DNA of 64,000 bases from Nitrospirota bacterium (GCA_963840455.1 CAWIYV010000004.1:96001-160000), one strand, 5' to 3'; positions 10,635 to 31,158 are shown, counted from the first letter of the stretch. Notes: generated by a model from the sequence alone, not told the origin. Numbers and translations: made by a program.

Positions 10635-10775
10635 TTTTCTAATCAGGGATGGACCTAAGCAGGAAATGTCAATACCGAAGCCTAACCCCATACGGTCTTA
10701 TTCTATGCGGAGAGGGCGGCAAAGGAGGCAAAGATAGCAGCGAAAGCGGCTATTTGCAACAAAAGAGAGCTGACC

Positions 10776-13809: not shown

Positions 13810-14091
13810 TCACAGCTTTCTGCAGGGATCTTAAATATAGTATACCACTGGAGGGCCGGCTTACCTGTGGATCTTCCCGCGGGGGACAGGACGGAGCATG
13901 CATCCGCGGGAATGTATGAGAAGTCAATGGCGCAGGAGAGTCGGAAGGAGCAATGACGGGAGAATATCATGATGTCAGGAAATCATGTCTGACCCGCTAC
14001 GATAAAAAAACATCTTGTTGTATTGTTGCGCATATTGTAATATATGCCCAAACGTATAAAGTCGGCCCGGGAGGGCCAACCAAGGAGGATC

Positions 14092-14703: not shown

Positions 14704-14705
14704 TA

Positions 14706-15721: not shown

Positions 15722-15898
15722 GACGGATCATACCTCTTAGACGTACCTCGGTCACCCCGGGGGCGGCGTCGAGTTGATCAAACGGCTACTTCTGTTGATT
15801 AACGTATAGCACTCCTCCGCCATGCCAAAAGATGGCGATTGAGTTCCGCTCCATGGTACAATTAAAGCAGGATAACAGTTCACTAAGGAGGTGTCGCC

Positions 15899-16429
15899 AT
15901 GAAAAAGACCCTATTGTTCATTGTCGTGATCCTGTCTGCCTTCGCGTTCGGTTCATCGGCCTTCGCAGGAGAAAAGATGGGAGCGCCTGTTGCTCATTCC
16001 AAGGACTTTGATCGGATGAAAGGGCTGGTGGGCGTATGGGAAGGAAAGGCGGATATGGGAAAAGGCGTGGAGCAGTTCAAGGTTACCTATGAACTGACGT
16101 CCGCGGGCAACGCCATCGTGGAGAAGTTCGCGGCCGGCCAACCCCATGAGATGGTCACGATGTACCATGACTATAACGGGAAGCTTGTTCTGACCCACTA
16201 CTGTTCGCTCGGGAACCAGCCCCACATGGAGCTCACGACATCCGGGGATGGCGCCATGCTGTTCGCCCTGTCGGAAAAAGCGCCGAACCTTGTCTCGCTG
16301 CAGGAGACGCACATGCACGCCCATGGCATCGTCATCGACGGCAAGAACAGTATGACGCAGACCTGGACGCTCTATGACAAGGGAGCGAAGGTGAACGAGG
16401 TGTCGGTTAAGTTGATACGCGTAATGTAA
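15899..16429 (+). CDS. Exported hypothetical protein (lipocalin-like beta-barrel)
   Basis: Signal peptide; LVGVWEG, THYCSLGNQP and HMH; AAGGAGG RBS. Confidence 0.7.
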   Translation: MKKTLLFIVVILSAFAFGSSAFAGEKMGAPVAHSKDFDRMKGLVGVWEGKADMGKGVEQFKVTYELTSAGNAIVEKFAAGQPHEMVTMYHDYNGKLVLTHYCSLGNQPHMELTTSGDGAMLFALSEKAPNLVSLQETHMHAHGIVIDGKNSMTQTWTLYDKGAKVNEVSVKLIRVM

Positions 16430-16498
16430 CAGAGACGCCGCAGGAAGCGGCGCACCTGGTCCGGGATTGCCGAGATCCAGGCCGGCGATCGAGGGGAC

Positions 16499-17092
16499 AT
16501 GAGAAAAATAATCGTCTTATCAATGATCACCTTAGATGGAGTAATGCAAGCACCTGGTGGACCTAAGGAAGATACGTCAGGCCGTTTCAAATATGGCGGT
16601 TGGGTTGCACCTTATGGTGACGAAGTTTATGGCAAGGTCATGGAAAAACAGATGAAACCTGCAGATCTTCTTTTGGGCAGAAAAACATTTGAGATTTTTG
16701 CCTCCTACTGGCCAGAGCATGAAAATGGATGGCCGGGCATCAATGATGTCACAAAATACGTCATGTCCAAGACCAAGAAAAAGTCAGATTGGAAAAACTC
16801 GGTTTTCCTCAAAAACCTGGCAGATATCAAAAAGCTCAAACATTCAAAAGGTTCTGACATTAAAGTCTGGGGCAGCGGTAAACTTATTCAGCTGTTGCTG
16901 AAGAATGATCTCGTGGACGAACTCTGGCTCAATATTCACCCGTTGACTCTTGGTAAAGGAAAAAAGTTGTTTGACAATGGCGCGATCCCGGCAGCATTTA
17001 CATTAATAGAGAGTACTGTTACAACAAGTGGAGTGATTATTGCCAATTACAAGCGAGCTGGAAAAGTCAAGACAGGTACTGTTGGAGCTTAA
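16499..17092 (+). CDS. Dihydrofolate reductase family (RibD C-terminal) protein; AT-rich
   Basis: ITLDGVMQAPGG, LLGRKT, GSGKL and LGKGKKLF motifs. Confidence 0.9.
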   Translation: MRKIIVLSMITLDGVMQAPGGPKEDTSGRFKYGGWVAPYGDEVYGKVMEKQMKPADLLLGRKTFEIFASYWPEHENGWPGINDVTKYVMSKTKKKSDWKNSVFLKNLADIKKLKHSKGSDIKVWGSGKLIQLLLKNDLVDELWLNIHPLTLGKGKKLFDNGAIPAAFTLIESTVTTSGVIIANYKRAGKVKTGTVGA

Positions 17093-17172
17093 GGCGGCTA
17101 ACCTATTAATATTTTCCCAGATACGCTGATGTCTTCACCAGGCGTTCTACAAACGCCTCATTTTCTCTGTCA

Positions 17173-17292
17173 AATGTAAAGACTTGATCCTATAGGTTTT
17201 ACTTCATGAACCACTTGGCAGATCAACAAGTCATCAATTCAAGTCTGACCCCCGACAGTCCTACCCAGATTCAAGTCTGACCCGATACGTCC
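17173..17292. repeat. TGACCC-core cassette-boundary repeat (family C), partial copy plus extra cores
   Basis: CTTCATGAACCACTTGGCAGATCAACAAGTCATCAATTCAAGTCTGACCCCCGACAGTCC, matching 20012, 25738 and 26688. Confidence 0.85.
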
Positions 17293-17316
17293 GCACTAAG
17301 AGGTCCGGGCATACCG

Positions 17317-17844
17317 CTAGCCGACCTTGCCAGGATGTTCGCGCCGAACCATCTGGATAACCTCGTCCAGTTTCTGCAAAAAGCTTGACCTGTCGCGGCT
17401 GGAGAAGGGTGCCGGCCCCCCGGTGATCTCGCCGTTCCCACGCAGTTCTGCAAGCAGGTTACGGGTTGCGACCGCATCTCCGATATTTTCCTCGGTGAAG
17501 GCCTTCCCCGTATGGCCGATCGCGTACGCACCAGCTTTGATGCATCGGCTCGCGAGGAGAACATCAGCCGTGACCACGATGTCGAGGGGAGTGATATTGG
17601 CAACGATCCAGTTGTCGGCCTCATCGAGCCCATCGCCGACAACGTGAAGTACGATCCCATCCTCGGTGGGCACGCGCATCCAGGAGTTGGCCACCAGGGT
17701 GACACCTATAGCATACCTGGCTGCGACCCGGTAGACCTCTTGCTTCACCGGGCATGCGTCGGCATCTACGAAAATATTCAGCAATCGATATCCTTGTTTG
17801 ACAAACTCAGAAGGATCCAGTGAGGTTGTCTCCAGCCGATCCAT
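17317..17844 (-). CDS. YaiI/YqxD (DUF188) family protein
   Basis: IFVDADACPVK, ADNWI, VVTAD and GGPAPF motifs; start codon uncertain. Confidence 0.9.
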   Translation of the reverse strand: MDRLETTSLDPSEFVKQGYRLLNIFVDADACPVKQEVYRVAARYAIGVTLVANSWMRVPTEDGIVLHVVGDGLDEADNWIVANITPLDIVVTADVLLASRCIKAGAYAIGHTGKAFTEENIGDAVATRNLLAELRGNGEITGGPAPFSSRDRSSFLQKLDEVIQMVRREHPGKVG

Positions 17845-17846
17845 CG

Positions 17847-17954
17847 TTGAAGCTCCCGCCAGCAACGGCATGGAGCTTCGATCCTCAGGGTAGTAATTTA
17901 TTCTAATCGCTCGCTAACCCCGGTTACGGGGAATGCACTCGCTCCTCGATTCAA
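17847..17954 (+). mobile_element. Family B MITE copy
   Basis: TTGAAGCTCCC...GCACTCGCTCCTCGATTCAA. Confidence 0.75.
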
Positions 17955-18043
17955 TTGTTGGGTCTTCTGACTTTCGTGTGGGCATGCAAAGTGTTTTTAA
18001 AGAATAATATGCTGAATTATCAGGCCTCAGACGACCTTCCAGC

Positions 18044-18430
18044 CACCTTTCTTGCTTGCCCGAAGAAAGGTGGAGCCAAAGAAGGGCACCCGGCGACCAT
18101 TCTGATCCGTCATGCTCGGTCGTCCTCAGTACATTTCAGAAACTCGGGCTTCGCCCTCAGACAGTCTGAAATGTTTAACCCTCGGACTCGGCCGCATGAC
18201 GGGAATGATCGCATGGGTGGAGGTCAACGGCTTTACAAGCTTTTACCCAAACCCCGCATGTCCCCGGAGCGGCCCTATGAATTTTCTGGGCACCCGTCTT
18301 GGCCAAAGGCAGCGTCCCGCAGGGCGCTGCGCACTGTCTGAGGCCGAAGGCCGAGTTTGCGCGGGCGAGCGGACGTGGCCTTAGTCGGGTCAGAAAATTC
18401 ATTCAGGACACGAAGGGGATATGCAAAAAA
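18044..18430 (+). repeat. Repeat family A full copy
   Basis: Modules 1 and 2 as at 6307 and 7672. Confidence 0.9.
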
Positions 18431-18486
18431 AGTTACATGGGCGAATATTACCCACACAAAACCCGGAAGATCGCAATTTTTTTGAT

Positions 18487-19389
18487 CTAGTCAAGCGCCC
18501 CATGTTCTTTTGCAGTCTTGATCCAGTGTTCGGCCAGTTCGGCAGGATCTGCGCCCACACCACGGCCAAGGTGCAGCGCCAATCCCATCAATAATTCCGA
18601 TGCCTTGCGGAGATCGGTGACATTGTCCAGGGTGCCAAATGATCCTTGAGCTTTCAAAAGGAGGAGATCGTGATGCTGGCGAGAAAAAGCTGTGGAATCC
18701 TGTAAGCCATCCGCGAACACAGGGATCATCAACAGGTCGATCCACTCGGGACCAAGCCGGTCCTGCAATTGTTCTGGCTCTTCTCTGCCCATCTCTCGCC
18801 AGAGACGCAAGGTCTGCCGGTCACCCGATCCGGCCAAGCCACTTTCCAGCAGAAAGGCGAAAGCGCTGTCAGCTAAACGTTGCATCAGTTCGAGATACTC
18901 ATCCTGAGCAACTTCGAAGCGCTTCGCGGCCTGTGCTTCAATGTAGGCGGCAACACTCAATCGAGGCAGATCTAAAACTTCCGGACACCCTTCTATACAG
19001 GGGAAATCACTCCCTTGGTACAGGTAGTAAAGCTCCTCGCCCTGCCTTTGGCGGCCAAGAGGATACAACCGGCAGGCCAATGGGCGCCGCGAATGCACGG
19101 TGCAGCCGAGATCAGGTGCATACTGGCTACATGCCGGCTGCTGTCTCCAGCCGGGTGCACCATCAAAACGCAACTGGATGCCACCAAAATCGCAGTAACG
19201 ATCGCGAAACACCCTCGGTGTCATTCCTTTTGCTTCAGCCATACACGCCAGTTCCCACGGGTTCAACCAGACAGTTTTGCCATGACAGCAGGTGCCTGAA
19301 CGTGAACAGGTAAGCGGCAGAATATCAGTAAGGGTGAGTTTTGTCGTGACCGACATTGCGGGTTTTCCTTTTGTCTTCCCTTTGTTCAA
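18487..19389 (-). CDS. YkgJ-family (CxxCxxCC-type) cysteine cluster protein
   Basis: CSRSGTCC, CSQY, CTVH and RPLACRLYP motifs. Confidence 0.85.
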   Translation of the reverse strand: MNKGKTKGKPAMSVTTKLTLTDILPLTCSRSGTCCHGKTVWLNPWELACMAEAKGMTPRVFRDRYCDFGGIQLRFDGAPGWRQQPACSQYAPDLGCTVHSRRPLACRLYPLGRQRQGEELYYLYQGSDFPCIEGCPEVLDLPRLSVAAYIEAQAAKRFEVAQDEYLELMQRLADSAFAFLLESGLAGSGDRQTLRLWREMGREEPEQLQDRLGPEWIDLLMIPVFADGLQDSTAFSRQHHDLLLLKAQGSFGTLDNVTDLRKASELLMGLALHLGRGVGADPAELAEHWIKTAKEHGALD

Positions 19390-19401
19390 TTTCTCTCCTG
19401 C

Positions 19402-20028
19402 TCATCGGACTTCCGGCTGAGGCTGGGTCCTCTGCGGCTTGCGGAAAGCGCGGATGATCATGGGAACGACGAGCATCGCGGCAAGAACGATCCACATCGT
19501 TGTGTCGGGATCGCGGATGTACTGGTTCAGATGCAACGTCGCGACCGCAATGACCGCGTAATACAGCATGTCCCCGGCGATCGCAAAGAGCCAGCCCATG
19601 AGGAAGCCATGTCCCGCTGCCATCGCCGATGCCCGCCCGGTCATCGGGTCCACGCCAAAAGAGATCATAACGAGCGAAATGGGGCCTGCACCGGTGCCGC
19701 TTAAGTGTTGCGCGCTCCTGGCCGCTGCAGCCTTCATCCGTGCGCTGAGGCGGGCGAGGAAGGTCACCTTCCCCGCCACCCATGCGAGCAGTCGAAGGAC
19801 CGGCTCGAACGCGAGCGCGAGCAGAATGTCGGAGATCAGGTAGAGACCCGCGGTCACGGGCCAGACCAGCCCCTTATCACGAGCGAGCAAAACGCCGGCC
19901 GGGATCCCGCCGCCGACAGGGATGAGGAAGAGCATCAATACGGAGAGCATGGGGGATACTAACAAAACAGACAGGCAAAGGCAATCGAAGAAAGAGTATC
20001 GGACAAGTAGTAGCGTGTGATCGAACAA
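19402..20028 (-). CDS. Hypothetical membrane protein
   Basis: Multi-TM; IPVGGGIPAG and FGVDPMTG; true start uncertain (possibly ~19950). Confidence 0.7.
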   Translation of the reverse strand: MFDHTLLLVRYSFFDCLCLSVLLVSPMLSVLMLFLIPVGGGIPAGVLLARDKGLVWPVTAGLYLISDILLALAFEPVLRLLAWVAGKVTFLARLSARMKAAAARSAQHLSGTGAGPISLVMISFGVDPMTGRASAMAAGHGFLMGWLFAIAGDMLYYAVIAVATLHLNQYIRDPDTTMWIVLAAMLVVPMIIRAFRKPQRTQPQPEVR

Positions 20029-20115
20029 CTACAGATCCACGTCTGACCCCAAACGCTTCATGACTCACTTGGCAGATTAACAAGTCATCAAGTCAAGTCT
20101 GACCCTCGACAGTCC
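20012..20115. repeat. Family C repeat, full ~104 bp copy
   Basis: AGCGTGTGATCGAACAACTACAGAT..TCTGACCCCAAACGCTTCATG...TCAAGTCTGACCCTCGACAGTCC. Confidence 0.9.
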
Positions 20116-20127
20116 TTATTAGTTCAT

Positions 20128-20568
20128 CTATAGTTCTTTCACTTCCACTCGGGCTTGAGTCCATGTATGCCGGCAATTCTTGCAACTCATATGATCCGTG
20201 TAACCCGTTCTCATGACCGGGACGATTACTTCTTTTTCAATAGTCCTGATGATCTGACCTTTTGCATTTTTCACACGCTCAGTCAGCTTCTTCGTCTTAG
20301 TACCTTTTTCCCGTCCATTCTGTACAGAAGATTCTAGTTTAGCAACGAACCAATAGCTGCATGACGGACAACGCAAAGTCTGCCCCCAATAATAATACCC
20401 TGCTGAAATGAGTGCGCACGCAGCACCGATTAGTTCCGCGATCCGTATTTTTGACCCCGCGTCCCCGGGAGGAAGTCCATGGAAATACCGCCATGCTAAA
20501 TTGACACCGAAAAGCGCCGGAAGAATGATAAAGAGCAGCCAACGCACACCAGGACGCATTTTGTTCAT
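20128..20568 (-). CDS. Hypothetical 2-TM protein with split zinc ribbon
   Basis: Two TM helices, CPSC ... CKNC; overlaps the upstream gene's stop. Confidence 0.7.
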   Translation of the reverse strand: MNKMRPGVRWLLFIILPALFGVNLAWRYFHGLPPGDAGSKIRIAELIGAACALISAGYYYWGQTLRCPSCSYWFVAKLESSVQNGREKGTKTKKLTERVKNAKGQIIRTIEKEVIVPVMRTGYTDHMSCKNCRHTWTQARVEVKEL

Positions 20569-21323
20569 AGGTCATTTCCTCCATCCAGCGTATTTGCTTT
20601 CTTAATCAAAAACGTCGACGGTTGTATACTAGCCGCCGCTATATCCCACAAAAGAATATGTTTTCGAAACAACTGACTGAATTCATCCTCGAATCTTTCC
20701 AGATATTGAGCCACCTTCTTGAAGGTTATGATCGATTCACCATCAGGACCCGGTTGCAGATAAATAACCTTAATGTCCGTCCTGATATTTTCGATCGAGA
20801 TACACGATATGGCATCTGATACTCGTTTCCGATCCTTTGTATAGAGATAGTCTTCGATCTCCTTTTGGGCGCGCATCGTAATGAATCCAAGGTCCTGTAA
20901 CATCACCATAAGATGGTAATACTTCTTTTTTTGTATTGTCGCTTTAAACACCGGCACCAATTGAAAAAGGATGTCCTGGAATCTCATGTTGGATGCGCTG
21001 ATGAGATAGGCGTCTTGTTTCTCCCTACGAGATCCCAGGTCGGTCTTCAATTCGACAAAATACGCAGTATGTAGGTCCCTGCTAAACAGCACATAATCTA
21101 CATTCACGGTTCTCTGCGATCCGGGATCATCAATGAGTGGAAATTCAGGGATGATGCATTCTGCAAGGGAGGATGCAGGTGCGATATATTCCTCCAGAAG
21201 GCCTTTCAAATAGAGCGAGAAGAAAATATCGGCGCGTCTTTCCAGCTGATATTTGGGAAGATTCCGCCAACGCGTGAGGTTATTGAATATCGTATCGAGC
21301 ATTCCAGTAGTTCCGCCCTGCAT
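20565..21323 (-). CDS. Putative PD-(D/E)XK nuclease-fold protein
   Basis: PEFP, VDYVLF, FVELKTD and KQDAY fit E..D..(D/E)xK; conserved-looking WRNLPKYQLERRADIFF N-terminus. Confidence 0.6.
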   Translation of the reverse strand: MQGGTTGMLDTIFNNLTRWRNLPKYQLERRADIFFSLYLKGLLEEYIAPASSLAECIIPEFPLIDDPGSQRTVNVDYVLFSRDLHTAYFVELKTDLGSRREKQDAYLISASNMRFQDILFQLVPVFKATIQKKKYYHLMVMLQDLGFITMRAQKEIEDYLYTKDRKRVSDAISCISIENIRTDIKVIYLQPGPDGESIITFKKVAQYLERFEDEFSQLFRKHILLWDIAAASIQPSTFLIKKANTLDGGNDL

Positions 21324-21359
21324 ATGTTATCCTTCCAGTCATCGCCTACGTGATTCTTG

Positions 21360-22601
21360 CTATATTTCTAGGATCTGTCCGTCCGGCACTACCCGTACAT
21401 TGTGAAATAGATCGGAATACTCGTGTCCAAATTCTGTATGGATGGGAATAAGCTGTTTCGGTTTCAAAGCCGCTTCGAACACCTGTAGATCTTCAGTTGT
21501 CGCATGGCCGCTCGTATGCGCGTAAATGAAGTTAACATCCTTATCCTGACGGTATGCAGAAAGCTTGTCAGCACCTGCGAGACCGCTCCCTGCGCTATCG
21601 ACATATCCGAGCCATTGCGAATATATAACGTTCACAGGCTTCTTACCCTTAAATCGTTCGATGAGATTCGCCCGCGATGCCTTGATCAGATAAAGATAAT
21701 TCGAAGGATATTCCTTGAGCTCTTCACGCCGAACACGGTACTGATAGACCTTCCTTCGAAAACCTGCGAACACGGAAGGATGTTCTCTCATGACCTTGTC
21801 GTGTGCGTGGTCAGCATAGACACGCAGGTTATCCCACCCGATCGACGGGGTATGGCAGGAAACGCTTTGGACACATTCCAGAACCCAAGTGGTATACAGA
21901 TCCAGTACGAGTGTCTTGCCAGCCCTTTTGCAGGCATTGTACGCTGAAACGATCCGATCAATGTTCTGCGACGATGAGATCAGGAAGGATATGTTCTCCT
22001 GCGACCTGATCGTCATATATATCATGTCCTCGACCGCGCGTTCTGTCGAATACTCGGTATTGTCCCTGCGGATCATCGTGCCTTCCATCAGGAGCACATC
22101 GATGTCTTTCGGCGGCTTCTCTGTTAGTTTATCGAATAGTATCGATTTTCTCCCATGGGAACGGAAATCTCCACTGTAGAAAATCCTCTTGTTCTCGGCC
22201 TCCACCAGGAACGCATAGGCATCAACTGCAGAGTGGTCCATAAGATAAGGCGTAATGCTGAAGTCTCCGATCCGAATAGGCGTCCATTTTTCAAAGAACC
22301 GGAACGGGTTCCCCAGCGGGCCCATGCCGAGGAATATGCGGGTCACATCGATTAGCTGTTTCGCCAAAGCACCGATATAGACTGGTACAGCTTTGTCAAG
22401 AATATCGAGGAGTCCATAATGATCCTGATGAGGGTGACTGATGATCACCGCGTCGGGCTTCAAGGACAGGATATTTGCATTATCGCGCTCATCATTGCTC
22501 AACGGTCGACCCATATCGAGAAGCAGTGTTGTCTCACCGGATGTTAGTTGAATGCAGGTACCTCCGATTTCATGGGCACCCCGATGTATTACAATTCTCA
22601 T
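21360..22601 (-). CDS. MBL-fold beta-CASP (short RNase J-like) nuclease
   Basis: HEIGGTC, SHPHQDH, DHS, SGD, MEGT, HTSGHA and PIHTE motifs. Confidence 0.88.
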   Translation of the reverse strand: MRIVIHRGAHEIGGTCIQLTSGETTLLLDMGRPLSNDERDNANILSLKPDAVIISHPHQDHYGLLDILDKAVPVYIGALAKQLIDVTRIFLGMGPLGNPFRFFEKWTPIRIGDFSITPYLMDHSAVDAYAFLVEAENKRIFYSGDFRSHGRKSILFDKLTEKPPKDIDVLLMEGTMIRRDNTEYSTERAVEDMIYMTIRSQENISFLISSSQNIDRIVSAYNACKRAGKTLVLDLYTTWVLECVQSVSCHTPSIGWDNLRVYADHAHDKVMREHPSVFAGFRRKVYQYRVRREELKEYPSNYLYLIKASRANLIERFKGKKPVNVIYSQWLGYVDSAGSGLAGADKLSAYRQDKDVNFIYAHTSGHATTEDLQVFEAALKPKQLIPIHTEFGHEYSDLFHNVRVVPDGQILEI

Positions 22602-22758
22602 ACTTTTCTCAATTCGGGTGCTGTCTGCGGACAGACTAAATACTGAGAACTACGCTAAGTGAGGATTAGGATGACATGGGAATGCCAAGATACAGAAGTT
22701 TCCTATTGCCATGAGAGTACTATAACTAGGATGAAATGGCAATTGAAGAAACAAATCG

Positions 22759-24168
22759 TGTCAAGCCCAAGCAGAAATGTCGTATTCTTACCAAAGCAGA
22801 AATGTCCTGTTTTAAGAGGTGCTGGACACTGCTGTCTTTTCTTTCTGATCGAGGTTAAGGGGCGCTCTCCACGGATGTGCCCCTGCCGGCTTTCCCCTAT
22901 CCCAAGTCTTGTGCAGCTTCAGCGACTCCCTACGTTCTTTTTCCGGCCGGGCAGTAATCTTCTGAAACCTCAAGCGTTGCCCATTATGCAGAATCCGCAT
23001 TGAACCATCCGTCCGCTCTTCCACCAACACCTTCTTAGCCCGGATATTGTCTTTGATCTGATAGAGCTTCTTGTCATGAGCAATGGTGAAGTCATTGCGC
23101 AATGCCCGCACGGTCCGAATGGACAATATCCGTTCCAACTCCCTGCGATCTGTAAACGGTCGGTGGAGATCCGTGTCCTTCGCCGGAGATACCCGATATC
23201 TCTGATTGTAGCCAGGCAAGTAGGTTTCCAAAAACGCATTCCCCTCGTCTTTACTTCTGATGCCTGCTAGCCGCATTTCTTTTATCACCCGGTCCTGAAA
23301 TGTCCCGAATAACCGCTCCACCCGCCCCTTGGCTTGCGGAGAATAGGCATGGATCACCGTCACGCCGAGTTCCTGAAGGCTTCTTTCGAACTGGCTCATG
23401 AGCTGTCGGCCTTCAAGCTGGTCTTCGATCGTCTGATACTGAACCGGCGCTTTATAGGTCGAATGGCGGTCTAAATACACGCTCTGAGGAATGCCGTACT
23501 GCCTGATATATCCTTTGAAGCTGTCCATGGCTGGAAGCGTACCTTCGTAATCATAGAACCTGGCGTATACTTCACCGGTGGCATCGTCCACGTATCCCAT
23601 CAGTACGCAGACCGGGCCGCGGCCCTCAAACCAGTCGTGGTGGGAACCGTCCAACTGCACCATGGCGCCCCGGCATGCTTTCCGTTCCCGCCACTGCCGG
23701 TGCGGCCGCCTCTTGCGCTGCCGGTACGGCAACCCTGCCTCAAGAAACCAGGTCCGCAGGGTCTCAACGCTTACCTTGATGCAGTTCTTCTCCCGAAGCT
23801 TTTCGCTCGCGAGGGTAGGACCAAACTCATGGTAGCGTTCGCGGCAAAGTTCGATTACCGTGTCTTTGACCGTCTCCGCTATCTGGTTGTTGGGCTTCCT
23901 CCCCCGAGCACAATGGCAAACCCCGGCATCGCCTTCCCTCCTGACACGCCGAATGATCCGCTGCAGCTGTCGAAGGCATAAACCAGCCATATCTGCCGCC
24001 TCTGCTTGGGTTATCCTTTTCTCTACGGCTTTACGAACAAGATGTAACCGCTTTGCTTCCTTCATGCTCATCGTGATAATGCCTCTCCCCATCGTGCCCT
24101 CCCTTGACGGAAGGACAATACGACATTTCTGCCTGGGAGAAATACGACATTATCACTTTGGAAGAACA
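22759..24168 (-). mobile_element. IS1202-family (ex-ISNCY) insertion sequence with 16 bp target duplication
   Basis: Ends TGT...ACA; repeated subterminal GCAGAAATGTC/GACATTTCTGC; direct repeat TTGAAGAAACAAATCG at 22743-22758 and 24169-24184. Confidence 0.9.
22812..24092 (-). CDS. IS1202-family DDE transposase
   Basis: N-terminal HTH; QLDGSHHDWF, YLDRHS and SPQAKGRVER motifs. Confidence 0.93.
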   Translation of the reverse strand: MGRGIITMSMKEAKRLHLVRKAVEKRITQAEAADMAGLCLRQLQRIIRRVRREGDAGVCHCARGRKPNNQIAETVKDTVIELCRERYHEFGPTLASEKLREKNCIKVSVETLRTWFLEAGLPYRQRKRRPHRQWRERKACRGAMVQLDGSHHDWFEGRGPVCVLMGYVDDATGEVYARFYDYEGTLPAMDSFKGYIRQYGIPQSVYLDRHSTYKAPVQYQTIEDQLEGRQLMSQFERSLQELGVTVIHAYSPQAKGRVERLFGTFQDRVIKEMRLAGIRSKDEGNAFLETYLPGYNQRYRVSPAKDTDLHRPFTDRRELERILSIRTVRALRNDFTIAHDKKLYQIKDNIRAKKVLVEERTDGSMRILHNGQRLRFQKITARPEKERRESLKLHKTWDRGKPAGAHPWRAPLNLDQKEKTAVSSTS

Positions 24169-24263
24169 TTGAAGAAACAAATCGGCCGGAGAGATTTTCT
24201 CTCCGGCCATATAGATTAAGCAATGATAAGAATCTCAATCTTTAAGTCTGATCCCATACGACC

Positions 24264-24443
24264 TCGGGCGTGCCGGCTTGCTATGTCGCGTTCGTCGTCT
24301 ATCACGAGATGCTGAACGCCGACATAGGGGTTACACTGCGGGGAAAACGAAGGAGCGTGCATCCGAAGGAGTTCAGGAGAAGGGAAAAGCTCTTTCAGGA
24401 GTATGAGAAGGCGATGGCGTGGGAGGGTGGGCAGGCGCAATAA
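24264..24443 (+). pseudogene. Orphan 3' fragment of an SprT-like/zincin gene
   Basis: Manual translation SGVPACYVAFVVYHEMLNAD...SVHPKEFRRREKLFQEYEKAMAWEGGQAQ*; no start codon; begins just after AAGTCTGATCCC. Confidence 0.65.
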
Positions 24444-24495
24444 CTACAGATTCATATTTTACCCAGGCACCCAACAGGAGCTAACAGCCAACATT

Positions 24496-25341
24496 TCATC
24501 TTTTCAGGCCTGACCCGCTACCGTCATTGAAGCTGTCATCCGTGAGATCAAAAATGTCCATGGAAGACATATCAATGGTAATAGTAATATCATCACTCGA
24601 ATCTCCAGTGCATCCTGCGGGAACAATGTAGAATGGATGTGCTGGATTGGTTAGAACAGCATCTATAAGTTGCTCATCTAATCCGATGCGCAACAAATAA
24701 CCCTTTCGATCCTCTTCCCAATGTGCGTTGTCAAACATGAAATCGAGGACCGATGGCTCTTGCTCTAGTATCGGTTCAAGTTTCAGTAGTTCGTCAGATG
24801 AATAATAACTAGCTGGATGTTGGTCGTGCTTCCTATTGTTGCAAGTTGAGCACAAAGCTACCAAATTACCGGGGACTAAGTGCCCGCCCAGAACGACGGG
24901 AATATGATGATCAATTTCTAGCCACATTGAAGATCCACATTTAAAGCATCGATTGTTAAAGAGAGAAAAGAATTTGTTTTTGTAATGACAGGCGATTACC
25001 GGAAATTGATAGTGTCTCCAAAAGTCAGACTTCTCTTTGCTTCTTAGCCGCTTCATTTCTTCCACTGTCATGGTCGTCAGTGCTGCAGCACGCAGCATTT
25101 CACGTGGATTTATGATCTTTTCTTCCCGAACACCAAAGTATGCTGCAACATCACGGGTGATTTCACCGCTCGGCAGCTCAATGACCGAAACAATCCTTTC
25201 AATCTTGAATGCTCGTCTGGCTTGCTGCATGTGACAGAAGGCCATTATGAAATATGGCTTTTCTACGACAACATCAGAGATAAGTCTTTCTGAGGTTTCA
25301 CTACCTCCGCCGTCGCGATATTTAATTATGAGATTACTCAT
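24496..25341 (-). CDS. WYL-like domain fused to an HNH endonuclease
   Basis: N-terminal IKYRD..ETSER..AFCH..RAFKIERI (WYL-like); CFKC..IDHHIP..GG..NLVALCSTCNNRK (HNH). Confidence 0.8.
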   Translation of the reverse strand: MSNLIIKYRDGGGSETSERLISDVVVEKPYFIMAFCHMQQARRAFKIERIVSVIELPSGEITRDVAAYFGVREEKIINPREMLRAAALTTMTVEEMKRLRSKEKSDFWRHYQFPVIACHYKNKFFSLFNNRCFKCGSSMWLEIDHHIPVVLGGHLVPGNLVALCSTCNNRKHDQHPASYYSSDELLKLEPILEQEPSVLDFMFDNAHWEEDRKGYLLRIGLDEQLIDAVLTNPAHPFYIVPAGCTGDSSDDITITIDMSSMDIFDLTDDSFNDGSGSGLKR

Positions 25342-25449
25342 TAGGCGGTCATAAAGGGCAAGGCGTCATATGCTACAGAGTGTCAACGCATCAATATGGA
25401 TAGCGGACAATAGACAAATCAACAACTCAAGCCTGACCCCAAACCGTCC

Positions 25450-25840
25450 CTGCAGCCTTCATTCGTGCGCTGAGGCGGGCGAGGAACGGGACCTTCCTCG
25501 TCACCCATGCGAGAAGTCGAAGGACCGGTTCGAACGCGAGCGCGAGCAGGATGTCGGAGATCAGATAGAGACCCGCGGTCACGGGCCATGCCAGCCCCTC
25601 ATCACGAGCGAGCAAAACGCCGGCCGGGATCCCGCCGCCGACAGGGATGAGGAAGAGCATCAATACGGAGAGCATGGGGGATACTAACAAAACAGACAGG
25701 CAAAGGCAATCGAAGAAAGAGTTTCGGACAAGTAGTCGCGTGTGATCGAACAACTACAGATTCAAGTGCGACCCCAAACGCTTCATGAACCACTTGGCAG
25801 ATCAACAAGTCATCAAGTCAGGTCTGATCCGCGACAGTCC
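25450..25840 (-). pseudogene. 391 bp duplicate of 19725-20115 (5' half of the membrane protein gene plus a family C repeat), truncated at a TGACCC core
   Basis: Collinear high identity; homology stops at TCAAGCCTGACCCCAAACCGTCC (25427-25449). Confidence 0.85.
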
Positions 25841-25863
25841 TCGACAGTCAAAGGTCGTCATAA

Positions 25864-26556
25864 TCAGAAGCCGTGATTACGAAGCCAGTTGGACAAAGAG
25901 CTATTCGGGCTATGTGGTTTTGAATTATACGCTTCGCACAAAGAGGTGTAGAGATTATCGTACCATTGCTTTACCTCTTGATGGTAATTGGGGTCGCGTT
26001 CATCGATAGCGGAGTTTAACCAATTTCTAACTTGGATTTCTTCGGGCCACTCTCCATTGTAGCTTGGCAATCGTCCAAGTTGTCGATAACAAATTTTACA
26101 AATAGCAAACGACTCTTGCCATGCTGCAATATTATCAGTAATATTCCAATCTTTTGAACATTGGCGATATATTTGTTTATATTTTTTATCAAAATCGAGA
26201 TTTGAATCGACAATTGATTGTACATGTCCATCCTTTACTATTGCTAATAGCAGTCCGTTAATCGAATTATGAATCGCTGTTTCAATGTTGTTAGCTTTTT
26301 TGTCACCCTCTACAGCGAGCCAGCCAAACCAACCACCGCGGTACGATTGACTGACTTTTTTTGCTTTACTACTATCTAGAATCATCATCACTTTTCGTCC
26401 ATAGCGTGGCCCCGCAAGTATTTCCAATGATAATACGATACCAGTATTGACTATTGATTCTGCATCAAGACGAACGACATATTTACCATCAGTAAGAATG
26501 TCTGTGTGATTTGAAGACCCCTGCCGTGTTTCGCTCATATGGTCCTCCAAGATCAT
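25864..26556 (-). CDS. Hypothetical protein (AT-rich)
   Basis: 230 aa ORF flanked by family C repeats; no recognisable motif. Confidence 0.65.
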   Translation of the reverse strand: MILEDHMSETRQGSSNHTDILTDGKYVVRLDAESIVNTGIVLSLEILAGPRYGRKVMMILDSSKAKKVSQSYRGGWFGWLAVEGDKKANNIETAIHNSINGLLLAIVKDGHVQSIVDSNLDFDKKYKQIYRQCSKDWNITDNIAAWQESFAICKICYRQLGRLPSYNGEWPEEIQVRNWLNSAIDERDPNYHQEVKQWYDNLYTSLCEAYNSKPHSPNSSLSNWLRNHGF

Positions 26557-26610
26557 AGATAGAACTAAAACTTATCTCAAAATCGCTTTAGAAGCTCTTA
26601 GCGTAATTTG

Positions 26611-26890
26611 AGGGGCAAGTCTTGTATTGTGCAATTTTGCTACAAATGCATGAGGAAAGACTTGACCCTAATGAAGGGATAGGTCATAGCGTGTGATCGA
26701 GCAACTACAGATTCAAGTGTGCCCCCAAACCCTTCATGAACCACTTGGCAGATCAATATGTCATCAAATCAAGTCTGGCCCTCGACAGTCCAAGGACCTG
26801 GAAGACCCCAGAATGTAACCTTGGCCCTCTAACGTCCACTTGAGAACGATCAACATCTCATAAACTCAAGCCTGACCAACTTCCATTCCA
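26611..26890. repeat. Family C repeat (26688-26791) with an inverted core pair and an extra core
   Basis: GGGGCAAGTCTTG / AAGACTTGACCCT inverted pair; full repeat; TCAAGCCTGACC at ~26866. Confidence 0.85.
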
Positions 26891-26897
26891 CAAAGAC

Positions 26898-27773
26898 CTA
26901 ATGCAAGACCCGATCCAATAAGATTGCGAAAGCGTGATGATTAAGCAACAATTTATAATCCGCGCATAGCGCCAACTCCCTATGAAGATTATCACGTGTG
27001 TGCGAATCAAGGCTTAGTCCTCTTTCTCGAAAATACCAAGCTAAAAGTGCTATAAGGTCGTGGCCGTGGATATGGAATTTGTGGTCAGTCTTCAACCTTT
27101 TCCTCAGCTGATCCACTTCTTGTAAAAACTCATTCTTCTGAGAATACCTTCTATTTTTTGATAAGAAGCGATCTATGTAATCATCGGCGTCGAAAGATAT
27201 CTTCCACCCCTCGAGTTTCATGCAAACGGGTTTATCAAGCCAGTCCATATACCAACCCAAAGTGTGATTCGCCATCCTCAGGAGAAAGAGTTCACTTAGC
27301 GTACTGGCTATTGTTATCAGGATAGTACCAATAGGCCAATCACTACGCCCATAGTATACTGTGATCAGTTTTTCGAGAATGGCACTCTCAAACAAGTAGG
27401 CTTCCATGCACGCGAAGTCAGTGTATACAAGACAGGGTTTTTCTAAGATATCACCTAGAACATGGCTAAAGTCCGCGTCTACAAAGCAAGTGATCTGCTT
27501 AGCATGCTTTCCAAAGCGCTCTTCAACTATGAATGATAAGTAGATCACGCGTCCCCGGTTGTTGCCCTTTAGCCCCATGCGCAGAACTTCTTCTTCAGGA
27601 ATCTCAACTGTGGCTATTTCATAGACACCAGCCGATGCCACGCCGACCGTGCGGAAGAACCAGCGAATTATTGCCGCGTCAAAAGAGCCCTCAACATAGA
27701 CATCTCTACGTATCGGATGTCGTTCATATAGAAAACACAATTCACTTAACTTACGTCTGGGTATTGTACTCAT
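26898..27773 (-). CDS. DUF4435/TOPRIM-like protein (PARIS AriB-like)
   Basis: VYVEGSFD, FVDADF, YTD..MEAYL and IHGHDL motifs; 2 bp downstream of the ATPase. Confidence 0.72.
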   Translation of the reverse strand: MSTIPRRKLSELCFLYERHPIRRDVYVEGSFDAAIIRWFFRTVGVASAGVYEIATVEIPEEEVLRMGLKGNNRGRVIYLSFIVEERFGKHAKQITCFVDADFSHVLGDILEKPCLVYTDFACMEAYLFESAILEKLITVYYGRSDWPIGTILITIASTLSELFLLRMANHTLGWYMDWLDKPVCMKLEGWKISFDADDYIDRFLSKNRRYSQKNEFLQEVDQLRKRLKTDHKFHIHGHDLIALLAWYFRERGLSLDSHTRDNLHRELALCADYKLLLNHHAFAILLDRVLH

Positions 27774-27775
27774 GG

Positions 27776-29122
27776 CTAGTTCTCTGAGGCTTTTATATTC
27801 TCTAGCGGCGCAACATAATCTCGATATTGAGAGAGTATCTCGATTGAATGAGTTGCCAGCATTATTTGAAAGGCAGTACCTGACAGGCAAGTCGTCAAGG
27901 CTGGAATAAGTCTACGCTGCCACTCTACATTTAAAGAAATCTCTGGCTCATCAATAATAAGGATTGTCCCTTCTCGCCGTGCACTAATCGCATTACAGAG
28001 AAGCAGCAGAAGCTGTTTTTCACCTGAAGATAAAACGGCAGGATTCAACTGATTGCCTTTGTCGGATTTCAATACAAGTCCCTCGTCTAAATGGATCGTG
28101 GCATTCTTATGAGCATAGAATTCATTGAGGAGTGATACAAAGCTCTCCATGACTCTCTGTAATTCCTGCAATGCGTCTAGGCGCGCCTTATGTCCTTCTA
28201 GATATGGCCCAAGGACTGTTCTCAGAATACTTAAGCGTTGCGAACCCGCATCTGCTAAAGGACCAGTGAGCATGGCGATGTCGAGTTCTGGCGTAAGTCC
28301 AAATTTTGCAAATGTGGCATTTCTTTGCCCCAGCCGTTCAAGATCTGCTATTAAGTTTTTCAGCGTTTCTCCCGCTTGTGCCCCGGGCTCACTACCATAA
28401 GTCACTACGCGCTGAATAATATCTTTATAGATTGAATGCACTGATGTGTAGCCTACATTTGTGCCTGATAAAGCTTGTTTCCGAAACCACTCTACCGCTC
28501 CTTCTATTGACATCCTAAGTTGTATATCTGTACTTGTCGCTTTCTCCTCCTCACCCTTTATAACGATGCGTCCCTCTTCAATTTCGCTAAGCAAGCTTCG
28601 ATGCATGGCATATCGTCTTTCCTCACTCCGGCCTTCGAGTCTTCTTGTATCTCGCAAATAATGAAATGTGATCCCCAAATCATTTAACAATTGGCAAAGC
28701 CTTTCGTATTCTTTGTCTTCCTTCTTTTTTGTCTTATCAGGGATCCAAGTCCATTTGGCGATTTCTTTCTTATCCTTACTCAATGTAATATCATATGGGC
28801 CAGGGTCCGGACTCTTAGCTCTACTCGCAGAAATAGTAAGGCCTGAAGTTAACTTAATATCAAATCGAGAAAAAGGAATTTCTCCGATATATGATCTGTG
28901 ACCGCCAAAAGGCTCTGGATTCATCAGATGATAGATAAGATTTAAGAGTGTTGTTTTACCAGCACCATTTTCTCCATACAAAAGAAGCAGCTTTCCCGAT
29001 TCGGGTCCTGGTGTCGTCGCCGCAGTGAGACGATATGTGAAAGTGTTGAAAAGATCTTCTACATAGATTTGGTCAATTAAAGAAATCTTAGTTCTTTCGT
29101 CTACTTTGATCGTATTTGCCAT
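27776..29122 (-). CDS. ABC-type AAA_15/AAA_21 ATPase (PARIS AriA-like)
   Basis: GENGAGKT, LSSGEKQ, IIDEPEISL and ATHS motifs with a long insertion. Confidence 0.85.
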   Translation of the reverse strand: MANTIKVDERTKISLIDQIYVEDLFNTFTYRLTAATTPGPESGKLLLLYGENGAGKTTLLNLIYHLMNPEPFGGHRSYIGEIPFSRFDIKLTSGLTISASRAKSPDPGPYDITLSKDKKEIAKWTWIPDKTKKKEDKEYERLCQLLNDLGITFHYLRDTRRLEGRSEERRYAMHRSLLSEIEEGRIVIKGEEEKATSTDIQLRMSIEGAVEWFRKQALSGTNVGYTSVHSIYKDIIQRVVTYGSEPGAQAGETLKNLIADLERLGQRNATFAKFGLTPELDIAMLTGPLADAGSQRLSILRTVLGPYLEGHKARLDALQELQRVMESFVSLLNEFYAHKNATIHLDEGLVLKSDKGNQLNPAVLSSGEKQLLLLLCNAISARREGTILIIDEPEISLNVEWQRRLIPALTTCLSGTAFQIMLATHSIEILSQYRDYVAPLENIKASEN

Positions 29123-29326
29123 TGTGGCCTCCAATTCCCGGCAGGGAAATTTCTTTAAAGGCTGCAGACTCAATCGTTTAGCTGTCTTTGAGCGAACGCA
29201 ATGCCACCTTTGAATGGGTTGTTACTTAGGAACATTTAGGGCCAGATCTCTTTTTTTTGCAGATGCCTATTAGCGCTCTTGCTTAGGTTCGGACATCTTT
29301 GGGTACGTTGTTTTTACCTGCGCTTT

Positions 29327-29470
29327 CCTGCCGTTCTCCTGCCTGCCTTCCGCTTTCTCCCCGCTTTTGTCTTCGCCGCCCTCTTCTTTGCTTTCTTCTT
29401 CTTCGCCTTCTTCTTCGGCGCATGCCAGTTCCGCGGGATCGGCTGCAGCATGCTGATGCGGTTGCCCTCG
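29327..29470 (-). repeat. Third copy of the VOC gene 3' end
   Basis: Encodes EGNRISMLQPIPRNWHAPKKKAKKK...; matches 32297-32440. Confidence 0.9.
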
Positions 29471-29473
29471 TGC

Positions 29474-29947
29474 TTACTGGAGTTTGGTCAATATCAGATC
29501 CCAGCGTTCCAGCCACTGCTGGCTTCCTTCTGTAAAACAGTTTTGGACATCCGACCAATATGCAATAAATTTATAGACCTCTTCATCATTGCTATGAATC
29601 ATTTTAAGAGCGTCCACCGGAAGGACAAAGAACGCGTGCTTATCAAACCAATAAGCCACAATGAAATCACTTGAATTCTTCTCATTCGGCGTCACGGTAA
29701 AATGGACAGCATTTCGATTCGTTCGATCCGTAACTACATTCTGACGAGTCTTTACTTCAATCTTAATTTGTGAAATATCATGGTTGCTGTCTAAACGCTG
29801 TAAAACCAAATCGCAACCTGTTTCAGTATAATTCTTAAACAATGTCCAGCCCGGCTTATCTTGCATTCGCATGGCCAAGTTTAAGAGAACTGCGCCTTCA
29901 CCAACCTCCTGCAATAACGCCTTCAAATTTTGCGATAACTGCGCCAT
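29474..29947 (-). CDS. Small PD-(D/E)XK endonuclease-like protein
   Basis: GEGAV, GCDLV, KIEVKTRQ and DFIV motifs; AT-rich. Confidence 0.7.
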   Translation of the reverse strand: MAQLSQNLKALLQEVGEGAVLLNLAMRMQDKPGWTLFKNYTETGCDLVLQRLDSNHDISQIKIEVKTRQNVVTDRTNRNAVHFTVTPNEKNSSDFIVAYWFDKHAFFVLPVDALKMIHSNDEEVYKFIAYWSDVQNCFTEGSQQWLERWDLILTKLQ

Positions 29948-30087
29948 CCCGCCCCCCCCCACGAAACCTTTAGGGTACCAGCCCGGGGTCAGTACCAGCC
30001 CAGGGTCATGCTTAATTATTGAGATTCGGGTCGGTTGTAGGTCAAGTTCCAGAATTCACCTTCTCACCCGCCAGGCCTACCCCATCC

Positions 30088-30915
30088 TCACATCCTCCAC
30101 TCGATCTTCGGCGCATTCCTGGGCACCAGCCGCTGGTACCGGTACTTCGGATATCCCGCCATCAGGACGCCATGGACAGCGTTGTCCGCGGGGACCTTCA
30201 GGGCCTCCCGGAGCGGCTGCCATTGGAGCAGTCCCACCATGACGAAACCGGCCCAGCAGGCACCGAGGCCGAACGTGGGCGCTGCAAGGTCGAAGTAAGC
30301 GAGCGCCGAGGTGCAGTCAACGGCGCCCAGTCCGTAGGCCTTCGGCGCATGGGCAAAGACGAGCACCGGGGCCCCGCGGGTGACGCCGTCTGCCCCGATC
30401 TCCCAGTCCGCCACGACGCGGTCGAGACGGTAGCTCAGCGCTATCGGGGCCTTTGCCTTTACCAGCTCCCGCATGTGATCAACGACCATGCCGGCCAGCT
30501 TCTTCACCTCGTCGCGGGAATTGACGACGAGCCAGCTTACGAGCTGGCTGTTCCCGCCGGTGGGCGCGTACCGCGCAATCTCGATCAGCTTCTGGAGCTT
30601 CTCCTGCTCAACGCGCTTGTCCTGATACGTGCGGATGGAGCGGCGGGAGCGGAGGAACTGCTCGGCCTGTGCAGGCGACAGGCTGAGCGCCCGGTCGAGT
30701 GTAGGGAAGTCCTCGTGCTTCAGCATCGAATGGGTGAACGCACCGTGCGGACAGACGGCGACGCAGTGGCCGCACCGGATGCATCGCTCCGCCGCGTCCG
30801 GCGTCGGCACCGGTGTCGAGGAGGCATCCTTCATCGCGATGATCTTGATGGGGCATTCGGCAACGCAGATGCCGTCCCGTTTGCATTTCTTATCGTCGAT
30901 CGTAAACAGGCTCAT
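30088..30915 (-). CDS. Nitroreductase with N-terminal 2x[4Fe-4S] ferredoxin domain
   Basis: CKRDGICVAECP, CIRCGHCVAVCP, RRSIR and APTGGN motifs. Confidence 0.92.
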   Translation of the reverse strand: MSLFTIDDKKCKRDGICVAECPIKIIAMKDASSTPVPTPDAAERCIRCGHCVAVCPHGAFTHSMLKHEDFPTLDRALSLSPAQAEQFLRSRRSIRTYQDKRVEQEKLQKLIEIARYAPTGGNSQLVSWLVVNSRDEVKKLAGMVVDHMRELVKAKAPIALSYRLDRVVADWEIGADGVTRGAPVLVFAHAPKAYGLGAVDCTSALAYFDLAAPTFGLGACWAGFVMVGLLQWQPLREALKVPADNAVHGVLMAGYPKYRYQRLVPRNAPKIEWRM

Positions 30916-30987
30916 GAAGCCTCCTTGAAGCCCCGGGAGCGAACCCCTGCGGGTCAGGTCTTTACCGTTAGTATTATCCTCGTTTTA

Positions 30988-31128
30988 CTGCCGTTCTCCT
31001 TACTGCCTTCCGCTTTTTTCCCGCTTTTGTCTTCGCCGCCTTCTTCTTTGTTATCTTCTTCTTTGCCTTCTTCTTCGGCGCATGCCAGTTCCGTGGAATG
31101 GGCTGCAGCATGCTGACGCGGTTGCCCT
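30988..31128 (-). repeat. Second copy of the VOC gene 3' end
   Basis: AGGGCAACCGCGTCAGCATGCTGCAGCCC...; matches 32298-32438. Confidence 0.9.
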
Positions 31129-31158
31129 GCTAAACGGTGAGACCTGCCCTCAGCATTC

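Follow-up and report, generated by a model that had tools for sequence, protein, structure and literature searches.

A 64,000-nucleotide stretch of a Nitrospirota bacterium genome (GCA_963840455.1, CAWIYV010000004.1:96001-160000; here called the window) carries, at positions 17173 to 30087, an island of accessory and putative anti-phage genes interspersed with copies of a short DNA motif. We examined this motif and its relation to the island, which a preliminary description had read as an integron-like array without attC or integrase, in which an enzyme acting in trans captures and stacks motif-delimited gene units. The genome holding the window (G000) comprises 4.03 Mb in 14 contigs (C numbers); related genomes and individual loci bear G and L numbers, respectively. 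Gene calls are crude picks of open reading frames (ORFs). The genes are co-oriented and low in GC, as described earlier: chosen ORFs of at least 60 amino acids between 17317 and 29962 all lie on the minus strand except for two short plus-strand frames at 17955-18490, and GC content is 0.41 to 0.50 at 20 to 30 kb compared to 0.58 for the genome. The cargo includes a PARIS-like pair, a WYL-HNH nuclease gene, a three-gene block, a PD-(D/E)XK-like protein (weak match), and ORFs without a family match (Table 1). Within the PARIS-like pair, the AriA-like protein scores 87 bits (AriA) and 76.9 bits (AAA_21), and the AriB-like protein scores 27.6 bits (E = 7e-7) with no Pfam match at E <= 0.01.

Read on the gene (minus) strand, the motif is (A)GGAC-N6-GGGTCAGACTTGA followed by a variable tail of ~15 nt, for which ATCTGTAGTTATT, CTTGATGACTTGTT, AAGATTGAGAT, AAAGATGAAATGTT, and TTTCCTGACAT are on record. 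A search for TCAAGYCTGACCC that allowed up to 2 mismatches hit 19 sites in the window, compared to 3.26 +/- 1.86 in 100 shuffles, none of which reaches 19, and 14 of the 19 matches fall on the plus strand between 13983 and 26878. Exact matches number 5 in the whole 4.03 Mb, 4 of them inside the window. A profile built from 36 hand-picked copies finds 32 copies in the genome at E < 0.05, and the 12 in the window are all on the minus strand, co-oriented with the genes. The motif is thus strongly enriched in the window, but the remaining 20 copies are found in both orientations (12 minus, 8 plus) and on either side of neighboring genes. These form clusters (C10:124-139 kb; C11:325-347 and 832-872 kb; C14:9, 56-60, and 231-243 kb) in regions rich in hypothetical and accessory genes, such as DndB/SNF2/HNH genes, an RHS protein gene, and an IS110 element. 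With ~32 copies in a few clusters, genome-wide behavior like that of repetitive extragenic palindromic (REP) sequences was rejected. Replication direction as the cause of motif orientation is also unsupported, given 12 minus-strand versus 8 plus-strand copies outside the window and no relation between GC skew and the orientation of these 20 copies. By genome, the exact core is found 12 times in G000, 19 times in G004, 11 times in G005, and at most 6 times in the others.

Comparison with relatives identifies the motif, with high confidence, as the terminal repeat of a known class of transposase gene. Of 40 other related genomes queried with 125 nt of the repeat, 3 gave weak matches. At one locus of a same-genus genome (L021), a gene for a 311-aa protein at 5362-6297 lies between inverted, identical copies of CGTATGGGGTCAGACTTGAATCTGTAGTTATT at 5298 (plus) and 6324 (minus), ~1.0 kb apart. 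The protein matches Y1_Tnp at 52.9 bits (cut-off 23) and the NCBIfam REP-associated tyrosine transposase (RAYT) model REP_Tyr_transpos at 69.5 bits, under its cut-off of 80; an HLH (HUH) motif and Y-x-H-x-N-P-V can be read by eye. A weak match to Bac_DnaA_C (19.3 bits, E = 0.0012) is also under its cut-off of 31.5. Inverted repeats surround a Y1 gene at L022/L040, L033, and L060 as well, with a conserved core and a lineage-specific tail. The inverted ends of these units are 25 to 32 nt long and have no hairpins. RAYT-like genes with long terminal inverted repeats (TIRs) were named TIRYTs, and the whole units TIRtrons, by Di Nocera et al. in 2013, who described a GGGGWSAS box shared by many of the TIRs and moderately abundant TIR families occurring as singles, dimers, and clusters (PMC3733652). 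In the classification of Quentin et al. in 2018, 20 of 26 described TIRYTs fall in Y1 subclass 2.1, with Bac_DnaA_C or helix-turn-helix (HTH) C-terminal domains (PMC6006769). The GGGGWSAS consensus is matched by GGGGTCAG, which is read in the window copies at 17251, 20049, and 25439 and in all TIRs of the relatives; other window copies have GGGTCAG, GGATCAG, or GGGCCAG in its place. Judged by its domains, the related enzyme is probably a RAYT-like Y1/HUH protein with a C-terminal DnaA_C-like HTH, the DnaA_C match being weak.

The genome holding the window appears to have lost this enzyme. At E <= 1e-10 it yields no TIRYT homolog; 43 of 60 family genomes contain at least one, with up to 20 matches each. 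What it retains are decayed examples, namely, a gene at C14:236722, whose neighboring TIR lies at 237175, and 25 codons at C11:830467 downstream of a TIR, together with TIRYT remnants or genes with stops at C7:13762 and C14:8030 and a broken IS200-like gene at C10:393728. Beside the decayed gene on C14, a 1,548-aa RHS-repeat protein is encoded at C14:231514-236160 (L046 3515-8161), between TIRs at C14:231305 and 237175. The earlier guess at a RAYT-like Y1/HUH enzyme is thus borne out by the inverted repeats around Y1_Tnp genes in relatives and by the fit to GGGGWSAS, and so is the statement that no such transposase is encoded here, which holds for intact genes in both the window and the assembled genome.

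Other classes of repeat fit less well. A classical REP hairpin was rejected: DNA folds of the repeats were no better than shuffles in 6 of 6 cases (z from -0.77 to +0.49), and therefore the repeats are not classical REPs. Nor did any hairpin have a terminal GTAG or CGTC tag beside it. An IS200/IS605 element, whose left and right ends differ from each other and carry subterminal hairpins without inverted repeats and whose TnpA is small, does not agree with inverted ends of 25 to 32 nt, no hairpins, and a 311-aa enzyme with a probable extra domain. An integron was rejected as well, with no IntI over the cut-off, no attC-like boxes, and no fold, so that the earlier statement of an array without attC or integrase stands. 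TIGR02249 (integron integrase) had no match over its 265-bit cut-off anywhere in the genome, and the scan of 34 window ORFs found no integrase, the sole recombinase being the ISNCY transposase. Between 17173 and 30000, RYYYAAC...GTTRRRY pairs number 2, compared to 1.8 +/- 1.9 in shuffles, none with complementary boxes. The best TIGR02249 match, on another contig, is a split gene at C7:125148 (135.6 bits); a further fragment, of 68 aa, is located beyond the window at C4:217289. The split gene (C7:124449-126383; L047 4449-6383) encodes an integron-integrase-like tyrosine recombinase. The 135.6-bit match covers model positions 8-146, there is a C-terminal piece besides, and an inserted ORF together with a copy of an abundant repeat breaks the gene up; it has no link to the window's motif.

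The window repeats occur as singles and as a two-core unit of ~115 nt (repeat A), present at 20001-20115, 25726-25840, and 26677-26791 and as a half copy at 17147-17261. The preliminary description had recognized these copies correctly. They are mutually 86 to 95% identical, a blastn search of the genome confines all four to one locus, and homology among the four begins exactly at GGACTGTCG, which is the ..CAGTCC boundary noted before. Among the lone cores listed earlier, those at 17271, 24242, 24506, 25427, and 26866 proved genuine and 10679 is a degenerate copy, but 26900 (GGGTCTTGC, at the end of the DUF4435-type gene) and 10770 (CPBP end) are profile-negative and 26656 is a different, partly inverted piece (GGGTCAAGTCT). 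Three genes had been thought to end in or at the motif. The WYL-HNH gene does, but the DUF4435-type (AriB-like) gene has a real copy ~10 to 20 nt past its stop and the CPBP gene meets the profile-negative site at 10770; only the WYL-HNH gene and a truncated copy of the small membrane protein gene truly end inside the motif. No Rfam family or tRNA gene was found in the window.

Table 1. Repeats, cargo genes, and flanking genes in the window (positions counted from its first nucleotide)
Position	Strand	Feature	Detail
10669..10699	-	Degenerate repeat GGGGTTAGGCTTCG	E = 9.9; followed by SprT-like 3' remnant
13968..14002	-	Repeat, tail TTTCCTGACAT	Core 13983-13995; followed by SprT-like 3' remnant; collinear with G021
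17202..17292	-	Truncated repeat fused to half repeat A	Cores 17271-17283 (truncated repeat) and 17239-17251 (half repeat A); between convergent DUF188 and RibD_C
17317..20028	-	Conserved flank	Small membrane protein, CxxCxxCC protein, other repeat families, DUF188
20001..20118	-	Repeat A, direct dimer	Outer end GGACTGTCGA; upstream of small membrane protein gene
20093-20105; 20037-20049	-	Repeat A cores at 20001..20118	Tails CTTGATGACTTGTT and ATCTGTAGTTGTT, respectively
20128..22601	-	Three-gene cargo block	146-aa ORF, 252-aa ORF, beta-CASP/MBL-fold nuclease; no motif inside
22766..24137	-	ISNCY-family insertion sequence	21-nt inverted ends; 377.6 bits (cut-off 250); unrelated to motif
24183-24209		Intrinsic-terminator-like hairpin	After repeat 24226..24266
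24226..24266	-	Repeat, tail AAGATTGAGATTC	Core 24242-24254; outer end cuts SprT-like remnant
24267..24440	+	SprT-like (HEMLH) remnant	C-terminal 58 codons; cut within ~6 nt of TIR at 24254-24260
24439..24464	-	Degenerate repeat GGGTAAAATATGA ATCTGTAGTTATT	Abuts stop codon of SprT-like remnant
24489..24530	-	Repeat, tail AAAGATGAAATGTT	Core 24504-24516; encodes last residues and stop of WYL-HNH gene
24496..25341	-	WYL-HNH nuclease gene	HNH 41.3 bits; WYL weak; weak PDC-M01B matches
25413..25453	-	Repeat	Core 25427-25439; outer end GGAC is 3' junction of 391-nt duplicate
25726..25844	-	Repeat A copy 2	Heads 391-nt duplicate
26677..26794	-	Repeat A copy 3	Upstream of 230-aa ORF without known family (25864-26556)
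26848..26888	-	Weaker repeat TGGTCAGGCTTGA	Core 26866-26878; E = 1.2; 20 nt past AriB-like stop
26898..29173	-	PARIS-like pair	AriA-like ABC ATPase 27776-29173; AriB-like 26898-27890
29994..30027	+	Weak inverted copy GGGTCATGCTTAATTATTGAGATTC	Copy 30003-30027; E = 6; nitroreductase-side edge of low-GC block
30088..30915	-	Conserved flank, other side: ferredoxin-nitroreductase gene	Protein 92% identical to G021

Every duplicated or truncated segment that we examined starts or stops at the outer (GGAC-N6-GGGTCAG) end of a TIR, with similarity on the inner (tail) side only. The 391-nt segment at 19725-20115 recurs at 25450-25840 with 93.6% identity over 392 nt. In the second copy, the small membrane protein gene is represented by its first ~100 codons, and the copy ends in ...GCTGCAG followed directly by GGACGGTTTGGGGTCAGG, straight against the GGAC of the next motif at 25450. 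At L021, a 600-bp tandem of a TIR and the first ~180 TIRYT codons is joined to the AGGAC of the full unit. The SprT-like gene, found at full length (~232 aa) in three same-genus genomes (PF10263 at 30.9 bits for the G001 ortholog), is cut at a TIR in the window, and its N-terminal part was found nowhere in G000; two shorter 3' remnants adjoin other TIRs at 10515-10634 (plus strand) and 13880-13957. The peptide at 24267-24440 had been considered as a TIRYT C terminus, a candidate rejected once it proved to be the end of the SprT-like gene. In G021, which belongs to another genus, the ortholog of the small membrane protein gene is preceded by the same dimer and leader, and similarity to G000 upstream of the gene stops at the outer end of the dimer. 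A second TIR dimer plus leader in G021 keeps just 16 membrane-protein codons before a GGGTCAGGTCT element begins, and the DUF188 stop codon stands directly against a TIR. When the flanks of all TIR copies with profile E < 1.5 were compared with one another, 23 pairs matched in register, of which 20 begin between -13 and 0 from the core and 3 at -66/-67, the outer end of the dimer; similarity extends inward for 22 to 380 nt and in no pair outward. Breakpoints at the motif, as proposed earlier, are thus found at its outer end, both within the genome and between two genera. This pattern is compatible with past end-specific breakage and joining at the repeat ends but does not demonstrate dedicated cassette stacking.

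Mis-joined repeats could in principle mimic such duplicates, in an assembly of 14 contigs and with relatives whose assemblies often break at repeats (cores lie at contig ends in G004). Repeat A copies differ, however, and 93.6% identity over 392 nt is a level of divergence that speaks against a collapsed repeat for the duplicate. G021, an independent genome, has the same arrangement of a dimer plus gene and a truncated second copy. The duplicate that the preliminary description flagged as possible misassembly is therefore real, and the probability of an artifact is close to nil.

At many loci in several genomes, the local 8 to 17 nt just outside the outer end of a TIR are tandemly repeated two to three times. 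The unit differs per locus (for example, GGGACCGCCT, GTAGTTAC, GGGGACGATT, or GGGACATTAT) and sometimes takes in the first GGGTCA of the TIR. Cases lie at L023 ~8490-8521, L051 ~3330-3360, L053 ~3212, L057 ~2951, L060 ~1251, and L024 ~9960-10000, and in the window at 25840-25852 and 29977-30009; at the latter edge, a tandem 17-nt duplication precedes the weak plus-strand copy (29994..30027) and spans its outer end. These units may be a footprint of the joining reaction.

If the motif served mainly in regulation, bound by an HTH protein or acting on downstream cargo genes as a mobile promoter or a terminator, selection on expression could account for the co-orientation. By eye, the tail of the upstream TIR of a TIRtron holds a promoter-like pair, TTGACA-N17-TATCAT, before the TIRYT start; two genera keep repeat A and its leader in front of the membrane protein gene; and terminator-like hairpins follow TIRs with the AAGATTGAGAT tail. 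Against this, none of 29 promoter-like sites between 17000 and 30200 falls in a gene-strand TIR tail, copies elsewhere face either way relative to their neighbors, and there is no Rfam match, which makes a mainly regulatory role very improbable. As an observation apart, a strong terminator-like hairpin with a T run stands 20 to 200 nt beyond TIRs with a AAGATTGAGAT or CTTATTGACTTGTT tail, either GGCCGGAGAG...CTCTCCGGCC or GAGCCGCGGCA...TGCCGTGGCTC. Such loci lie at C14:56477-56514 and 59986-60021, at C10:131130 and 137000, and in the window at 24183-24260; pairs share 145 to 252 nt. They may be small transcribed units or derivatives resembling miniature inverted-repeat transposable elements (MITEs).

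G021 shares the flanks of the island (nitroreductase, 92% identity; small membrane protein, 87%; DUF188, 92%; PhnB-like and AHSA1 proteins, 87 to 91%), but between nitroreductase and membrane protein genes it has 8.3 kb of different co-oriented cargo (Gp49/HTH, GmrSD, Schlafen/AlbA_2, PIN, and DUF6933). This stretch has one degenerate TIR inside, and TIR-like copies face inward at both of its edges. Two core proteins are only 58 to 70% identical between G000 and G021, so the shared region may have been exchanged. DUF188 (YaiI/YqxD; 17317-17871) is present in 15 of 64 family genomes at 76 to 94% identity and is more similar to its counterparts in genus g17 (92 to 94%) than to that of the closest genome of the same genus (88%). 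The two core proteins show the opposite order, which suggests horizontal exchange of the block. Synteny within the genus was of little use, with the kinase ortholog 57 to 70% identical and the assemblies fragmented, and the FAD/BBE flank was not found in 5 same-genus genomes. Because only 1 of 80 small-membrane-protein loci in public contigs (L087) has a TIR or leader, the hotspot comparison rests on two genomes. Four runs of sequencing reads contain the ISNCY element and short fragments of relatives only, not the window's organism.

These data could be those of an ordinary defense-island hotspot. Horizontally transferred cargo would then be exchanged through homologous recombination in the conserved flanks, the TIRs would have inserted passively between genes as REP sequences do, and the duplications would stem from recombination or replication slippage between copies. 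The same flanks around different cargo, the flank identities set against those of the core proteins, and the low GC of the cargo all agree with such a hotspot, as do the published singles, dimers, and clusters of TIR families (PMC3733652) and the crowding of the region by an unrelated ISNCY element and by other repeat families with hundreds of copies. It leaves unexplained, however, why SprT-like, membrane protein, and TIRYT genes are truncated within a few nucleotides of one TIR position in three genomes and why similarity never crosses the outer end, and we regard a hotspot of this passive kind as a rather unlikely account.

Several other repeats share the region. One of ~115 nt with two hairpins, GAATCCAGGAGCGAGC...CCCCGCAG-TTTG-CTGCGGGG...GAAGCTCCCTGCAG...GGGAGCTTCAAC, has hundreds of copies on all large contigs, often in tandem, and looks like a classical REP/MITE family; its window copies lie at 11787-11893, 12078-12210, 13682-13813, 14510-14704, and 17846-17953. 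Two families of 130 to 150 nt (11932-12231 and 18240-18430; 12945-13098 and 18086-18217), with dozens of copies genome-wide at 72 to 94% identity, are found as insertions that separate the CxxCxxCC gene from DUF188, its direct neighbor in G001. A 162-nt repeat (29309-29470, 30969-31130, and 32279-32440; 86 to 91% identity), in which no TIR is involved, is the 3' end of a 160-aa ORF at 32287-32769 (...GNRVSMLQP plus a lysine-rich tail), and its extra copies begin right after the stop codons of the PD-(D/E)XK-like gene and a 325-aa ORF.

The preliminary description went further and proposed that a Y1/HUH enzyme in trans inserts the motif with adjacent genes at the outer end of a resident motif, stacking co-oriented modules in a manner that would be analogous to integron cassettes or to one-ended mobilization by ISCR/IS91-like elements. 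All 12 window copies are indeed co-oriented with the genes. In the window as well as in two further genomes, segments made of a TIR and a variable inner flank stop precisely at the next TIR's outer end; similarity between TIR loci has a fixed outer limit and reaches inward by a variable 22 to 380 nt. The cargo at 20116-30002 lies between the outer ends of facing TIRs, and G021 has facing TIR-like copies with the same flanks around other co-oriented defense cargo; the 8- to 17-nt tandem duplications next to the outer ends of many TIRs resemble what repeated joining would leave. The Y1-linked site and the outer-end breakpoints thus survive from this proposal, but none of the cargo modules was found to recur in another context with ends set by the motif. 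Nor does the motif delimit every gene, since two blocks of three genes each (20128-22601 and 26898-29962) contain no motif, and the 8.3-kb island of G021 holds a single degenerate copy. Out-of-window copies lie in both orientations to neighboring genes, G000 has no intact enzyme, and the exact core shows no comparable array in TIR-rich relatives. Around DUF188, G000 14002-17289 was first read as an insertion relative to G021; a deletion next to the TIR in G021 is simpler because G001 and G066 have DUF188 beside RibD_C as in G000 (G001 without a TIR there). A capture-and-stack system therefore stays hypothetical, and we judge it quite unlikely. A broader form, in which TIRs serve as one-ended mobilization or landing sites and a Y1/HUH enzyme carries variable inner DNA, from tens of bases to several genes, to the outer end of another TIR, likewise seems improbable.

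The window is probably best read as a set of orphan TIRs, singles and direct dimers of two subtypes, in a variable accessory and anti-phage island between conserved genes, that is, as a relic and not a working capture platform. TIRYTs formerly active in the lineage would have spread TIR copies inside an already variable island, nicking and rejoining DNA at the outer TIR end. Such joining could have produced TIR copies and partial duplications of a TIR with its inner flank, as well as deletions beside the end, after which TIRs came to abut the stop codons of the genes that remained. Segmental duplication would then account for part of the co-orientation, with repeat A family members making up 8 of the 12 copies, and end-directed joining for another part, and the TIRYT genes would have decayed afterward.

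Several points weigh against this relic interpretation. Homology that ends at a terminus is expected of any mobile or duplicated element and is no proof of TIRYT action; the junctions, a small set of ~6 independent events in two genera, are the only ground from which cleavage at the outer end is inferred; and homologous recombination between repeat copies could be the source of some duplications. No TIRYT enzyme activity is known from the two published accounts, which describe functional tests as still to come (PMC3733652, PMC6006769). An intact TIRYT could sit in a gap because the assembly is in 14 contigs, and the profile counts are partly circular because the profile copies were hand-picked. 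Finally, a relic alone does not explain why ~8 independent copies are co-oriented with the window genes.

The accounts that introduced TIRYTs and their repeats in 2013 and placed them in a classification in 2018 give no activity, target, or role (PMC3733652, PMC6006769). The ~6 independent junctions, lying within a few nucleotides of the outer repeat edge in three genomes and two genera, suggest the position at which the enzyme would cut, and a defense-island hotspot can evidently be edged and interspersed by TIRYT repeats. If end-directed joining took place, these elements would be an unrecognized force shaping accessory and anti-phage regions; if it did not, the island is an ordinary variable one with relics of an extinct transposase system. 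Should one-ended mobilization be true, facing and stacked TIRs would build and reshuffle defense islands as an HUH-driven counterpart of integron or ISCR capture, and the TIRYT/RAYT-like enzymes, so far enigmatic, would take part in assembling islands.

Among known systems, the TIRtrons and TIRYTs, as far as their published descriptions go, share with the elements seen here a RAYT-like Y1/HUH gene with a C-terminal HTH (putative here) between long non-hairpin inverted repeats, the GGGGWSAS box (GGGGTCAG), and dispersed repeats of moderate copy number in singles, dimers, and clusters. Different from those descriptions, the repeats in this genome are orphans with all TIRYT genes decayed, more than one-third of the copies are co-oriented in one defense/accessory island, duplication and truncation junctions lie at the outer repeat end, and direct dimers mix two TIR subtypes.

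REP/REPIN-RAYT systems likewise have a lone Y1 gene between inverted short repeats that are also spread intergenically, mostly downstream of genes, and each enzyme lineage has its own repeat variant. The TIRs differ in lacking a palindromic hairpin and a GTAG/CGTC tag and in numbering tens rather than hundreds of copies, and relatives hold several diverged enzyme genes per genome. Integron arrays and CALINs, the latter being attC clusters that lack an integrase, resemble the island in their co-oriented, promoter-poor, diverse small modules with a recurring site and no adjacent recombinase. In contrast to them, the island has no IntI and no attC-like R''/R' boxes or fold, its site skips genes, and the associated enzyme is an HUH nuclease, not a tyrosine recombinase. 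IS91 and ISCR elements use an HUH enzyme and have one fixed end with a variable co-mobilized flank, which would yield the fixed-outer, variable-inner pattern observed; their enzymes are of the Y2 type and are encoded beside the captured genes. No ori/ter ends and no tetranucleotide target were identified for the TIRs, and the resemblance is one of analogy only. Defense-island hotspots, finally, resemble the locus in that anti-phage or toxin-antitoxin cargo differs between the two genera inside one flanking gene pair: G000 has a PARIS-like pair and WYL-HNH there, and G021 has GmrSD, Schlafen/AlbA_2, PIN, and Gp49/HTH; what sets this one apart is that its edges coincide with facing TIR copies.

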